Sequence record: NC_027395.1
Origin: Escherichia phage vB_EcoP_SU10
DNA length: 64,000 bases
Strand: one strand, 5' to 3'
A model generated the notes under the pieces. It did not search any database. It was not told where the DNA came from and worked only from the letters and a program-made list of their open reading frames with translations. A program made the translations under genes and the position numbers. The stretch's first letter is position 1, and each line of letters starts with the position of its first letter. Below are positions 55,290-57,311 of the stretch, piece after piece.

Positions 55290-57311
55290 TTAACCTCTAT
55301 TCAATGAACATTTAGGGGAATTACAATAAACTTGATTCATAGAACCAAGCGTACAACTTTCAGCATCGCGCCACGGAATCTGCTTAAAACACTCTGAGCA
55401 GTAGCCGAGGGTTGACCACATGGCTTTGGTGAAGTCAGTGCTTCGGTTTCCGTCGAAGCTGACAACAGTTTTGCGGAGAGTTGTTCGTGATTCAGGAAAC
55501 ACACCTGCTTTCTCAGCAGGTTCCTCCTTTTTTGGCTTAGTTGAGATTGCAAAAATACTGTTGCTACGTTTCTCAACATAAGCATCAACAACATCCTCCA
55601 GAGTGATGCCTGTCTGTTTCGCTGAGGAAGGTAATACAGTCATACGACCGATCATATCTTCAGTTACACGTAAAGCAAATTCAGGACGACGGGCGTTTGT
55701 TGTATCTGTTGCTTTAATCCAGATATAACCATCTTTGATCGTAGCATTAGATACTTTCTTCTTTACTTCTACAGCGCAGACTTTACAGATATCTTCACCA
55801 CGAAGACGACTGAGTTCCTCATCAAACTCATTCTCTGTTTTAACTTCACCACAGATTTCACAAACACCAATAGGAGTCTCCTCCTCTTCTTCCTCTTTAG
55901 GTTTAGTCAAACCTTCCAGACATTCAGGATGCCAGTAGCACTGATATGCGAAGACTGCTTTAGGTGCATCCTTCCAATCAATGTGCTTATCACAACCACC
56001 ACAATCGCCATGAGAGTGTGCTTCCCAGAATTTACGAGTGATAGTAACACCATTCTTGTTGACGAAACTATCATTCATATCAAAAGGGATATCATCATCA
56101 AAGTCAGCAGTAGTAGACTCAGGCTCCTTTTTCTCCAGAGATGGGTCAACAAAACGACCTGCTGTGATCACTAAGCGAACCATAGCATTAACTTCGGAGA
56201 TGCAGGATACTGTCCCACGGTAAACAATTTTAGGGTCTTTCAGGGCATCCTGATAAGCCTTAATGTCTACGTTATGAACATCACCTTCGATATACTCTTG
56301 AGACTTCTCATCGTAGATATAACCAATCATCTTACCACGAGAAGGAACAGCACCAGCAGTTGCATAAGGAACAAACTCATGCGGAGTGATTTCCACAGTC
56401 ATATCTCGGCGAATGTCAATGTTTCGATCGCTTGCGATTTTGTTTTGACTTACCACTGCGTTTCTTCGACGAACGTCTGCCGCTGTCACTCCCGGCTTCG
56501 TGTCGTAAGGATTGCTTGTATTGCTTTTTGAGGAACTTTGATAGTTGCTTTGGCTGTAGTTGTTCGAGTAATAACTGCCCCAACGATTGGCTACCGTAAA
56601 AACCGGAAGCTCGTGGGCGACCTCTTCAACCAGAGTCATGCTGTTGTTTGACATATCAAAGATATATTCTGTACCAACTTTACATTCAAAATGCTCATCA
56701 ATACGGTTCTTGTGAGATCTAGAACGCTTCAGAATCCACATCAACATGTCTTCTTCAGAAGCACCAAACCAATCTCTGTTACAACGTGCGAGGTGGAATG
56801 GACGCTCTTCGTTACGGATGATATGAAGACGGTTATCAGAAGCATCATGCCAGATTAAGGTGAAAGCACCATCCAGCTTTTGAATAGTCTCTGCTGCACC
56901 AATAGTGTTAATAGAGTGGCAGATGTTCTCACTGTCTACCTCGAAGTTTTTGCTGTCAGGTAACAGATCTTGGTCCATCAAGGTTCCATTATGAACCAGA
57001 GTGATGTTACCATGTTGGAAAGGATGGGCGTTCTTGGCGTTAACTGCACCTTTCGTTGCATGACGACTGTGACCAACAATCCATGAAGGTGCTACAGTGT
57101 AAGCTGTTTCACCAGTGGTGTGCTTCTTGTACTCATCTTGTAGGATGAATGCGAAAGAAGGAAGAGCTTCTTTATAAGTGAAGACTTCCTTAGTACTTTT
57201 ACGCTGACCAAAGATACCGGAGGAATGTTGTCCTCGGAATACTCCAGCATAAAAGAGTTGGTTAAATACGTCTAAATCAGTGCTTGACAGATTACCGCCA
57301 GCTAATACGAT
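55290..57311 (-). CDS. Class II (Ntn) glutamine amidotransferase fused to Zn-ribbon-rich C-terminal region; proposed ATT start
   Basis: In-frame region upstream of track start encodes (M)CGIVLAGG, RGQHSSG, GHSRHATKGAVNAKNAHP, HNGTL; AGGTGG RBS 8 nt before ATT; stop TAG immediately upstream. Confidence 0.7.
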   Translation of the reverse strand: MVLAGGNLSSTDLDVFNQLFYAGVFRGQHSSGIFGQRKSTKEVFTYKEALPSFAFILQDEYKKHTTGETAYTVAPSWIVGHSRHATKGAVNAKNAHPFQHGNITLVHNGTLMDQDLLPDSKNFEVDSENICHSINTIGAAETIQKLDGAFTLIWHDASDNRLHIIRNEERPFHLARCNRDWFGASEEDMLMWILKRSRSHKNRIDEHFECKVGTEYIFDMSNNSMTLVEEVAHELPVFTVANRWGSYYSNNYSQSNYQSSSKSNTSNPYDTKPGVTAADVRRRNAVVSQNKIASDRNIDIRRDMTVEITPHEFVPYATAGAVPSRGKMIGYIYDEKSQEYIEGDVHNVDIKAYQDALKDPKIVYRGTVSCISEVNAMVRLVITAGRFVDPSLEKKEPESTTADFDDDIPFDMNDSFVNKNGVTITRKFWEAHSHGDCGGCDKHIDWKDAPKAVFAYQCYWHPECLEGLTKPKEEEEEETPIGVCEICGEVKTENEFDEELSRLRGEDICKVCAVEVKKKVSNATIKDGYIWIKATDTTNARRPEFALRVTEDMIGRMTVLPSSAKQTGITLEDVVDAYVEKRSNSIFAISTKPKKEEPAEKAGVFPESRTTLRKTVVSFDGNRSTDFTKAMWSTLGYCSECFKQIPWRDAESCTLGSMNQVYCNSPKCSLNRG

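Follow-up and report, generated by a model that had tools for sequence, protein, structure and literature searches.

Introduction

The C-terminal tip of bacterial SSB (SSB-Ct) is a central recruitment hub of replication, recombination and repair and an antibacterial target. Its partners, among them chi, ExoI, RecQ, PriA and DnaG, carry a hydrophobic pocket with a basic rim. The pockets known so far touch the alpha-carboxylate of the terminal Phe (PMC3594151), and SSB of Escherichia coli ends in MDFDDDIPF, its last nine residues (PMC3632105). In phages, an acidic tail with an aromatic residue, terminal there and serving protein recruitment, is found in T4 gp32, T7 gp2.5 and the phage and prophage SSBs that end in DDDIPF. 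Proteins of this kind as a rule end with the tip itself, whose codons are unconstrained.

A stretch of 64,000 nucleotides from Escherichia phage vB_EcoP_SU10 (NC_027395.1), here called the window, encodes a homolog of phiEco32 gp83 which shares the acidic tail with the aromatic residue but in which zero-frame codons follow the tip. The peptide ...TTADFDDDIPFDMND... of this protein, encoded on the minus strand, contains DFDDDIPF, the same eight residues as in the SSB-Ct of E. coli and, in the model, likewise closing an acidic disordered tail behind an OB fold. Unlike in E. coli SSB, the tip is internal in the zero-frame product, with 263 residues after it, and the protein is a fusion of amidotransferase and zinc ribbons with a predicted OB fold and not a dedicated SSB. 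The linker from the OB fold to the tip has only about 16 residues in the gp83 homolog.

The second system to be compared is the frameshift of dnaX (tau/gamma, A_AAA_AAG), and the E. coli copA/CopA(Z) frameshift has a design similar to that of dnaX. The gp83 homolog resembles dnaX in having a heptamer suited for a slip, a near-immediate -1 stop and a would-be truncated isoform without the C-terminal domains. It differs in that the heptamer is C_CCU_UUU, that an upstream SD and a downstream hairpin were searched for and not found, and that the proposed slip would not only drop domains but give the product one particular last residue whose carboxylate is free. Literature searches turned up no report of frameshifting in ssb genes or of an internal SSB-Ct mimic.

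Architecture of the gp83 Homolog

The gene for the 676 amino acids of the gp83 homolog occupies the ORF 57320..55290 on the minus strand. It had been given as 55290-57311 in the initial annotation, where the end at 55290 was right and the start was not: translation begins at 57320 with an ATT codon, yielding (M)CGIV..., and the same ATT begins the phi32_83 CDS in the RefSeq record of phiEco32. The protein is organised as follows.

55290..57320, minus strand: gene of the 676-amino-acid phiEco32 gp83 homolog; ATT start at 57320-57318, stop at 55292-55290, match to PHROG 4736 with E=9e-202
56598..57320, minus strand: class-II (Ntn) glutamine amidotransferase domain, residues 1-241; Pfam GATase_6 with E=1e-14, above the cutoff, AF2 pLDDT about 90
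56487..56597, minus strand: disordered low-complexity linker rich in S/N/Y/Q, residues 242-278; pLDDT below 50, homologs unalignable here
56130..56486, minus strand: predicted helix and five-stranded OB-fold domain, residues 279-397
56082..56129, minus strand: acidic disordered tail with the motif at its end, residues 398-413; pLDDT below 50, variable apart from the motif
56082..56105, minus strand: DFDDDIPF, residues 406-413 (D406-F413), the same eight residues with which E. coli SSB ends
55293..56081, minus strand: part read in the zero frame only, residues 414-676, with three Cys4 zinc-ribbon-like modules and one alpha/beta domain; invariant cysteines, AF2 segments

A Cys stands immediately after the initiator Met, the HNG at residues 110-112 (Asn-Gly oxyanion motif) is invariant in the homologs, and Foldseek matched the domain to the glutaminase domains of GlmS, PurF, AsnB and EgtC with E about 1e-12. 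Judged by N-terminal Cys, modelled Ntn fold and Asn-Gly motif, the N-terminal part is predicted to be a class-II (Ntn) amidotransferase. Residues 1-241 share N-terminal Cys, fold and Pfam GATase_6 with these four enzymes, which stand for the class-II glutamine amidotransferases and gamma-glutamyl hydrolases; what is fused to them in the gp83 homolog is not a synthase or acceptor domain of known type but OB fold, tip and zinc ribbons. In the AlphaFold model the OB fold lies at about residues 308-391, and together with the disordered acidic tail and its tip it would form an SSB-like module between the amidotransferase domain and the three zinc ribbons. The cysteines after the motif that are invariant in a set of 29 homologs are C440, C443, C467, C487, C490, C512, C515, C641, C644, C666, and C671. 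A PDB sequence search with the motif region gave no match.

The SU10 proteomics paper lists the gp83 homolog among the detected proteins. The gene stands in a cluster of the phiEco32 type with two GS-like amidoligases, a RimK-like ATP-grasp enzyme and a gamma-glutamyl cyclotransferase. For such clusters Iyer et al. 2009 (Mol Biosyst) reportedly predicted a peptide-like metabolite or a protein modification as the product.

The Internal SSB Tip

The agreement of DFDDDIPF with the E. coli SSB tail inside the amidotransferase-fusion protein, which the initial annotation had noticed, is exact (8/8), and the SSB-Ct consensus D-D-D-I/L-P-F is matched. The site lies on the minus strand; the coordinates 56081-56104 given for it are off by 1 nt and become 56082-56105. 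In a six-frame reading of the window about 1e-5 occurrences of this exact 8-mer are expected by chance.

In a set of 29 homologs with 34-69% identity no member departs from P412 or F413, and conservation at D409 and D410 is 90% or higher. The core D-D-[IVA]-P-F is the sole conserved element of an otherwise unalignable hypervariable disordered linker; absence of the motif from homologs, earlier proposed as a reason to abandon the idea of mimicry, is thus not what is seen. An acidic-x-P-[FWY] sequence, almost always with P-F, occurs in 61/120 family members among the matches listed, at differing positions. The Phe is followed mostly by D or E, and D, E, S, N, G, and A have all been seen there. 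The predicted structure gives the tip the position that it has in SSBs, where it closes a disordered tail joined to an OB fold. Unlike an SSB-Ct, the tip of the zero-frame product has no terminal Phe with a free alpha-carboxylate, as 263 residues follow Phe413, and on this point too the earlier reading was correct.

From its conservation the segment is very probably a selected linear motif. That it acts as a mimic of SSB-Ct is likely, with clearly less certainty; the conserved core and the modelled OB fold before the motif support this earlier suggestion. A second protein, encoded at 35428-36174, had been taken for the SSB of the phage on account of a similar acidic end. The ending ...DDNDSPF-stop is present and the identity as SSB gained no support: neither a Pfam nor a PDB sequence match was found, the PHROG family is listed with function unknown, and the homologs are all annotated as hypothetical.

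A Slippery Heptamer Followed by a Stop

The codons of the tip read ATC CCT TTT GAT and so form a C_CCU_UUU heptamer on I-P-F with UGA following at once in the -1 frame.

56082..56088, minus strand: C_CCT_TTT heptamer (X_XXY_YYZ) in the right register for a -1 tandem tRNA slip; read from the sequence, conserved at the nucleotide level in the I-P-F lineages
56080..56082, minus strand: TGA stop of the -1 frame, which would be met next after a slip on the Phe codon; P-F-stop in that frame

The register is correct, the zero frame reading ..C CCT TTT, and the -1 frame is closed upstream as well, where GAT GAT becomes TGA TGA. Because TGA stands directly after the heptamer, a -1 product would end exactly at Phe413. 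In the ORFs of the window only two in-frame CCCTTTT heptamers occur, and this site is one of them. The heptamer C_CC.U_UU.U, which E. coli genes contain less often than expected, is one of the class H_HH.U_UU.Y, whose members are among the most efficient -1 heptamers in that host (PMC4066793). Heptamers without a stimulator shift only about 0.1-0.3% of the time in E. coli (PMC4066793), so a 46-kDa isoform made at such a rate might be very minor.

A stimulatory element as expected for a programmed -1 site was looked for in the form of an SD-like sequence, a hairpin or a pseudoknot and was not found. No SD-like sequence precedes the heptamer, and folding energies downstream of it are ordinary (z from -1.9 to +0.3 in single-sequence folds of 70 nt from 11 slippery and 9 non-slippery homologs). 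For five sequences of the Kuravirus clade RNAalifold predicted a weak hairpin; four of its pairs are compensatory, but the covariation term is positive and so unfavourable. Neither kind of fold was counted as evidence. Neither Rfam nor scans for promoters and terminators detected anything at the site. A sequencing error as its source was considered and rejected, since 14 independent Kuravirus loci share the identical site and an isolate genome has it too.

The Heptamer within the Family

Exactly ATC CCT TTT is used in 10/11 lineages with I-P-F, which share 30-70% amino acid identity, and in 9 of these 10 the -1 stop follows immediately (the exception is lineage L028). Synonymous sites are saturated between the lineages, codon identity at identical residues being about 0.47-0.50. 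Conserved codons at conserved residues are common in the gp83 gene, an example being F175, which is TTC in 18/18; single-column codon-conservation z-scores are therefore not specific and were replaced by tests on tripeptides and on background IPF. Elsewhere these loci encode IPF 17 times and never as ATC CCT TTT (0/17, Fisher 8e-7). Out of 41 invariant tripeptide windows only DDI, DIP, and IPF are nucleotide-identical in 9/9 sequences, the next best reaching 6/9, in a comparison of nine full-length homologs which are a subset picked for having the heptamer. The slippery arrangement is stable over the 14 Kuravirus loci.

The site with slippery heptamer and stop is absent in 8/18 full-length homologs, which belong to the V-P-F, A-P-F, and P-P-F classes, and in one I-P-F homolog, with the protein motif kept. 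Since these non-slippery homologs also conserve the motif, frameshifting cannot be the general cause of its conservation, and the internal motif must have a function of its own.

Enrichment in Phage and Bacterial Sequences

Degenerate scans of IMG/VR were used to sort the codons of DDDIPF by the in-frame context that follows, with 120 matches listed for each context. The use of ATC CCT TTT among the matches listed was as follows.

DDDIPF then in-frame GA, -1 outcome TGA stop: 51/120
DDDIPF then in-frame AA, -1 outcome TAA stop: 39/120
DDDIPF then in-frame GC, -1 outcome no stop: 1/120
DDDIPF then zero-frame stop (terminal motif), -1 outcome not applicable: 2/120

After clustering of the matches listed, 39/85 clusters of the GA set are slippery versus 2/104 of the terminal set (P=2e-14) and 1/63 of the GC set (P=8e-11). 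The heptamer together with the -1 stop is thus enriched across the collection where DDDIPF is not the zero-frame C-terminus. ATC CCT TTC, which is slippery without a stop, is not enriched (3/120 among the matches listed). In the GA set CCT TTT is preceded by ATC in 51 and by ATT or ATA in 8 of the matches listed (binomial 8e-14). The heptamer is present even in GC-rich genes in which all neighbouring codons end in G or C (L129). Among the matches listed many of the IMG/VR genes bearing it encode gp32-like or bacterial-type SSBs, and numerous phage SSBs are extended in the zero frame after DDDIPF and have no slippery site.

The enrichment of CCT TTT recurs in the AA set, which is, however, dominated by genes ending in DDDIPFN-stop. 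Many of these genes have a common downstream promoter-like element, AATTAGAACGGGTCTATAATGG, and this replicate was treated as confounded for that reason. In GTDB genomes the enrichment is weak (11/120 among the matches listed) and confined to prophage-like SSBs.

The PA5oct-like SSBs, judged by sequence, are a second family of the same design as the gp83 homolog. At 52-67% amino acid identity they have an internal DDDIPFE, encoded as ATC CCT TTT GAR in 8/8 members examined, and a conserved C-terminal helix in the zero frame after the motif. The homologous SSBs of the cultured relatives Paride (PA5oct-like), 121Q, RaK2, and XaC1 are without DDDIPF.

Proposed Mechanism

Most ribosomes would read through the site and make the 76-kDa full-length protein, in which the tip, being internal, lacks what SSB-Ct pockets recognise, a Phe with its alpha-carboxylate free. 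A fraction would slip by -1, with tRNA-Pro leaving CCU to pair with CCC and tRNA-Phe passing from one UUU to another, meet UGA at once and release a 46.4-kDa isoform, amidotransferase-OB-...DFDDDIPF-COOH, with a C-terminus chemically identical to that of the host SSB. Since the slip would release a terminal Phe, the paradox of an internal tip would be resolved by it. The non-tryptic C-terminal peptide computed for the -1 product is EPESTTADFDDDIPF, and the zero-frame counterpart reads ...DFDDDIPFDMND.

The short isoform could dock on proteins recruited by host SSB or compete with SSB for them. Docking would bring the amidotransferase to ssDNA or to a replication-repair hub, and the neighbouring amidoligase, ATP-grasp and gamma-glutamyl-cyclotransferase enzymes would presumably be brought along. 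The frameshift and its rate, binding of particular SSB partners by the tip and a role of the enzyme there are all inferred.

Codon conservation and enrichment make it fairly probable that -1 frameshifting at the heptamer is real and selected. The whole explanation, a selected SSB-Ct mimic in an SSB-like module freed by the frameshift, is favoured a little less strongly. For phages in general the chances appear evenly balanced that the arrangement is a device in which a gene with DDDIPF and further zero-frame codons keeps AUC CCU UUU followed by GA or AA, so that a set fraction of ribosomes would slip and terminate after Phe.

Alternative Explanations

The best surviving alternative, though itself rather unlikely, takes the motif as an internal short linear motif without any recoding, recognised by a partner that needs no free C-terminus, with the heptamer kept for an unrelated reason. 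The following Asp or Glu might stand in for the carboxylate, and candidates for the partner are host proteins that bind SSB-Ct, the phage replisome and the neighbouring amidoligases. Such an explanation fits the V-P-F, A-P-F, and P-P-F homologs that keep the motif without a slippery site, its varying position in the 61/120 family members among the matches listed, the usual D or E after Phe, the many phage SSBs running past DDDIPF in the zero frame without a heptamer, and the outcome of the search for a frameshift stimulator, in which none was found. It leaves unexplained, however, why ATC CCT TTT is kept in 10/11 I-P-F lineages at saturated divergence and why the heptamer is enriched 25- to 50-fold only where a -1 stop and a non-terminal motif coincide (among the matches listed), and in those SSB-Ct pockets that are known there is contact with the alpha-carboxylate of Phe (PMC3594151).

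It is improbable that the enrichment is a mutational footprint without frameshifting, left by 1-base deletions in the C/T run of gene ends which turned ATC CCC TTT TGA or ATC CCT TTT TGA into ATC CCT TTT GA and so extended the ORFs. Both ancestral forms do occur among the terminal motifs, 2 each of 120 among the matches listed, and many slippery cases have just 1-7 extra codons. Against this stand long conserved zero-frame regions after the motif in three families (the zinc-ribbon part of gp83 with 263 residues, the helix of the PA5oct-like SSBs, and the T4 gp32-like proteins), the stability of the arrangement in the 14 Kuravirus loci, and the share of ATC before CCT TTT, 51/59 compared with about 39% ATC among terminal motifs (among the matches listed).

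Proteolytic processing, which the initial annotation had considered, is about as improbable as a footprint. A protease cutting the full-length protein after Phe413 would expose the tip and yield the same product as the frameshift, and the motif lies in a linker that is exposed and disordered in the model. No protease or cleavage-site signature was identified, the residues after Phe are variable (D, E, S, N, G, A), and cleavage would not select synonymous codons or a -1 stop; the evidence points instead to the slippery heptamer with its immediate -1 stop. Chance resemblance without specific function, conceivable in an acidic low-complexity linker and also raised earlier, is effectively refuted by the expectation of about 1e-5, by a P-F that is invariant where nothing else aligns, and by the OB fold that precedes the core.

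Implications

The proposal that frameshifting frees the tip is backed by a strong controlled enrichment over dozens of apparently unrelated phage genes. If it is true, each such gene would have two products, one with a free active SSB-Ct and one in which the tip is masked by an extension or by domains. Phages would in this way tune the number of functional SSB tips, and enzymes that are not SSBs would pass as host SSB. The device would extend over SSBs of the gp32-like and the bacterial type, over other SSB-like proteins and over the amidotransferase fusion, and it would be the first frameshifting that creates a C-terminal docking motif in need of a free carboxylate. If this is confirmed, many phage SSB genes now annotated with a single product would turn out to contain recoding sites of one widespread class, and recoding would be shown to be able to unmask C-terminal linear motifs.

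For SU10 and its relatives, a phage enzyme with an exact copy of SSB-Ct would be a new kind of device for hijacking or targeting a hub of the host. The hypothesis offers a first way to approach what the amidotransferase-amidoligase-ATP-grasp cluster does in phiEco32-like phages and predicts that its chemistry would be delivered to ssDNA or to the partners of SSB.

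The DFDDDIPF motif of the amidotransferase-fusion protein

As E. coli SSB terminates in the nine residues MDFDDDIPF (PMC3632105), residues 406–413 of the amidotransferase-fusion protein (DFDDDIPF, coded at 56105..56082 on the minus strand) are an exact eight-residue match to its tip, with a chance expectation within the window of about 1e-5. The initial annotation had seen the peptide correctly and placed it one base off. A search of 5.8 billion proteins yielded 193 relatives, 29 of which (34–69% identity to the window protein) were aligned. Amid surroundings which cannot be aligned, P412 and F413 never vary, and conservation is 90% or higher at D409 and D410. 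Absence of the motif from homologs, which the annotation had named as refuting its mimicry idea, is therefore not what is seen. Among the best 120 of the 193 relatives, 61 carry acidic-x-P-[FWY] after the enzyme domain, nearly always as P-F (DDIPFD, DDVPFE, DDAPF[RQ], EPPFD, DDLPFD), at positions differing from residue 248 to 651, mostly past residue 360. Selected short linear motifs behave in this way. The observation holds, and the motif is clearly non-random.

The window derives from a phiEco32-like Kuravirus, with 98% identity to phiEco32 across the amidotransferase gene and 96 matching phage records. The genes concerned are:
57320-55290, minus: amidotransferase gene (phi32_83 homolog), ATT start 57318-57320, stop 55290-55292, 676 residues as in RefSeq phi32_83
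55287-55054, minus: DUF7195 gene, 77 aa
36174-35428, minus: phi32_40 homolog, 248 aa, SSB-like acidic end ...YEDDNDSPF-stop, canonical CCA TTT TGA

Translation from the ATT start gives (M)CGIVLAGG..., the catalytic Cys codon following directly, and a stop codon lies two codons 5' of it. Automated ORF calling, like many deposited phage records, instead starts at an internal TTG/ATG and gives a product of 563 aa, which would be without the Ntn nucleophile. The surrounding cluster contains two GS-like amidoligases, a RimK-like ATP-grasp enzyme, a gamma-glutamyl cyclotransferase and DUF7195, and was reportedly first described in a comparative-genomics paper of 2009. In all homolog loci, as in the window, the DUF7195 gene comes after the amidotransferase gene and in many cases overlaps the end of that gene. 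Beyond it lie a further small ORF and the gene for the RimK-like ATP-grasp enzyme, an order kept in homologs at 41–62% identity. The SU10 proteomics paper lists the amidotransferase protein as an early product only.

An AlphaFold2 model calculated from the 29-sequence alignment (mean pLDDT 80) suggested the following architecture:
Residues 1-241: class-II amidotransferase domain
Residues 242-278: disordered S/N/Y/Q-rich linker
Residues 280-298: helix
Residues 308-391: five-stranded barrel (OB fold), helix between strands 3 and 4
Residues 398-413: disordered acidic tail, motif at its end
Residues 414-676: three Cys4 zinc-ribbon-like modules and a small alpha/beta domain

The glutaminase domains of GlmS, PurF, AsnB and EgtC match the amidotransferase domain, and residues 279–413 modelled separately reached a pLDDT of 89. 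Like SSB, this segment has an OB fold followed by an acidic disordered tail that ends in the tip, here built into a larger enzyme. Since in the model the disordered acidic tail with the motif comes after the OB fold, its placement is not random.

The protein at 35428-36174, previously called a phage SSB, does have the acidic DDNDSPF end, but the SSB identity was not borne out: it is a hypothetical protein, and neither Pfam nor the PDB gave a sequence match. Its homologs in Kuravirus, Proteus, Aeromonas, Cronobacter and Salmonella 7-11-like phages are all annotated as hypothetical as well. Possibly the phage encodes here an SSB of its own, of a type not yet described.

A slippery heptamer at the motif

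The DNA at the site reads GAT GAT GAT ATC CCT TTT GAT ATG, in which C CCT TTT in the zero frame forms an X_XXY_YYZ heptamer. The zero-frame product masks the tip. On a tandem slip to the -1 frame the ribosome would read CCC TTT and then TGA, and the slipped product would terminate exactly at ...DFDDDIPF, thereby unmasking the tip as a true C-terminus. The computed -1 product has 412 residues after Met removal and 46.4 kDa, the full-length protein 76.0 kDa. Because CCC is a better match than CCU for tRNA-Pro(GGG), the shift is favoured. Heptamers of the type H_HH.U_UU.Y rank with the most efficient ones known from E. coli, and C_CC.U_UU.U is a shift-prone motif under-represented in E. coli genes (Sharma et al. 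2014, PMC4066793).

Neither an SD-like sequence nor an Rfam match was found at the slip site, and no downstream RNA structure was significant or showed convincing covariation. Unstimulated heptamers in E. coli yield only about 0.1–0.3% frameshifting (PMC4066793), and without help from the nascent acidic-Pro peptide or the local context the real efficiency at the motif could be low. The literature searched contained no description of an internal SSB-Ct mimic or of an ssb gene with frameshifting. In-frame CCCTTTT occurs only twice in the ORFs of the window, including the motif site; the second lies at about 19063 on the plus strand (ORF 19022-20056, context KGLRAPFIV) with no nearby -1 stop. The heptamers A_AAA_AAG and G_GGA_AAG each occur once in frame in these ORFs.

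Conservation of the heptamer in the amidotransferase family

The DNA of 18 full-length homologs, and of some that are more distant, was compared. Synonymous sites are saturated, as codon identity at identical residues plateaus at 0.47–0.50 for pairs below 60% amino acid identity. ATC CCT TTT is found in 10 of 11 lineages with I-P-F:
Window, L004, L008, L057, L058, L062, L067/L006, L007
Distant: L016, L028

In nine of these ten, all but L028, the next codon is GAY, AGT or AAT, so that the -1 frame reads TGA, TAG or TAA. The only non-conforming I-P-F lineage, L063, has ATT CCG TTT GGT and is also without a -1 stop. Elsewhere in these genes, conserved P, F and I columns have CCT at 40%, TTT at 57% and ATC at 41%, so that the triple would be expected at about 0.09; none of the 17 other IPF tripeptides in these loci has it (Fisher 8e-7). 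In nine full-length homologs chosen for having the heptamer, only DDI, DIP and IPF among 41 invariant tripeptide windows are nucleotide-identical in 9/9, the next best reaching 6/9. Homologs with V-P-F, A-P-F or P-P-F are not slippery (GTT CCG TTC, GTT CCA TTT, GCT CCG TTT and similar); as they keep the motif, it is conserved in its own right as protein, and the slip site would be an additional layer in roughly half of the lineages.

The heptamer in other phage genes

As the frameshift hypothesis predicts a property of the motif and not of one gene, IMG/VR was scanned with fully degenerate DDDIPF patterns, 120 matches being listed per pattern.

ATC CCT TTT among the IMG/VR matches listed, by what follows DDDIPF
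In-frame GA (-1 TGA stop): 51/120
In-frame AA (-1 TAA stop): 39/120 (CCT TTT 102/120)
In-frame GC (-1 TGC, no stop): 1/120
Zero-frame TAA/TGA (canonical terminal motif): 2/120

All 24 codon combinations occur in the 120 terminal motifs listed. After clustering the listed matches by upstream sequence, 39 of 85 clusters in the GA set are slippery versus 2 of 104 in the terminal control (P=2e-14) and 1 of 63 in the GC control (P=8e-11). Among the listed GA matches the slippery but stop-less ATC CCT TTC is not enriched (3), and CCT TTT is preceded by ATC in 51 and by ATT/ATA in 8 (binomial 8e-14, taking the frequency of ATC in terminal motifs as reference). The heptamer also stands in GC-rich genes amid GC-ending codons, as in locus L129 (GAC GAC GAC ATC CCT TTT GAT TGA). 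Most carriers among the matches listed are SSBs, belonging to several types unrelated to one another, and the window's amidotransferase is a further carrier; in GTDB species representatives it was found only in prophage-like SSBs (11/120 matches listed). By these counts, phage genes in which the zero frame continues past DDDIPF show a strong and specific enrichment of the heptamer with its -1 stop.

The GA loci (L121-L240, e.g. L129, L134, L192, L218) include at least 39 clusters, mostly gp32-like, PA5oct-like and bacterial-type SSBs, in which DDDIPF is followed by 1-70 or more zero-frame codons, all with ATC CCT TTT GA and -1 TGA. L151 (contig 3300010340_000460) has DDDIPFD and DNDIPFE 13 residues apart, each with ATC CCT TTT G.

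The AA set was treated as confounded since genes ending DDDIPFN-stop dominate it and many share a promoter-like element downstream. In these loci (L361-L480, e.g. L361, L369, L384) many SSB genes end in CCT TTT AAT TAG or TAA, the conserved AATTAGAACGGGTCTATAATGG that follows many of them looks like a phage promoter, and CCT TTT occurs regardless of the preceding base. Many phage and prophage SSBs (L481-L600, L126, L130, L154) have conserved zero-frame extensions past DDDIPF with no slippery site, such as DDDIPFAPVTLPFP, DDDIPFAPLHHLAG and DDDIPFDDPYRLLW, where the tip is truly internal. Together with the non-slippery homologs, such extended SSBs show that internal DDDIPF motifs persist without recoding.

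Alternative origins of the site

The main artefactual explanation is a mutational footprint: if a canonical end, ATC CCC TTT TGA or ATC CCT TTT TGA, lost one base from its C/T run, ATC CCT TTT GA would result as well. This cannot account for families with a long conserved zero-frame continuation, such as the zinc-ribbon part of the window protein or the T4 gp32-like family. Another is formed by PA5oct-like SSBs (52–67% amino acid identity), where ATC CCT TTT GAR is kept in 8/8 examined; their DDDIPFE sits in a variable linker upstream of a conserved C-terminal ..DILAMIRARQ helix, which is present too in cultured relatives without the motif. Nor does deletion explain why C is so strongly preferred in front of CCT. 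Sequencing error is ruled out by the identical site in 14 independent Kuravirus loci and an isolate genome.

That DFDDDIPF is a selected functional element can be stated with high confidence. For -1 frameshifting as the selected mechanism confidence is moderate, and less attaches to which partners the tip engages. In the best-supported reading the motif would be an SSB-Ct mimic, a copy of the C-terminal tip of bacterial SSB, which ends an OB-fold-plus-acidic-tail module and would be unmasked by a -1 slip.
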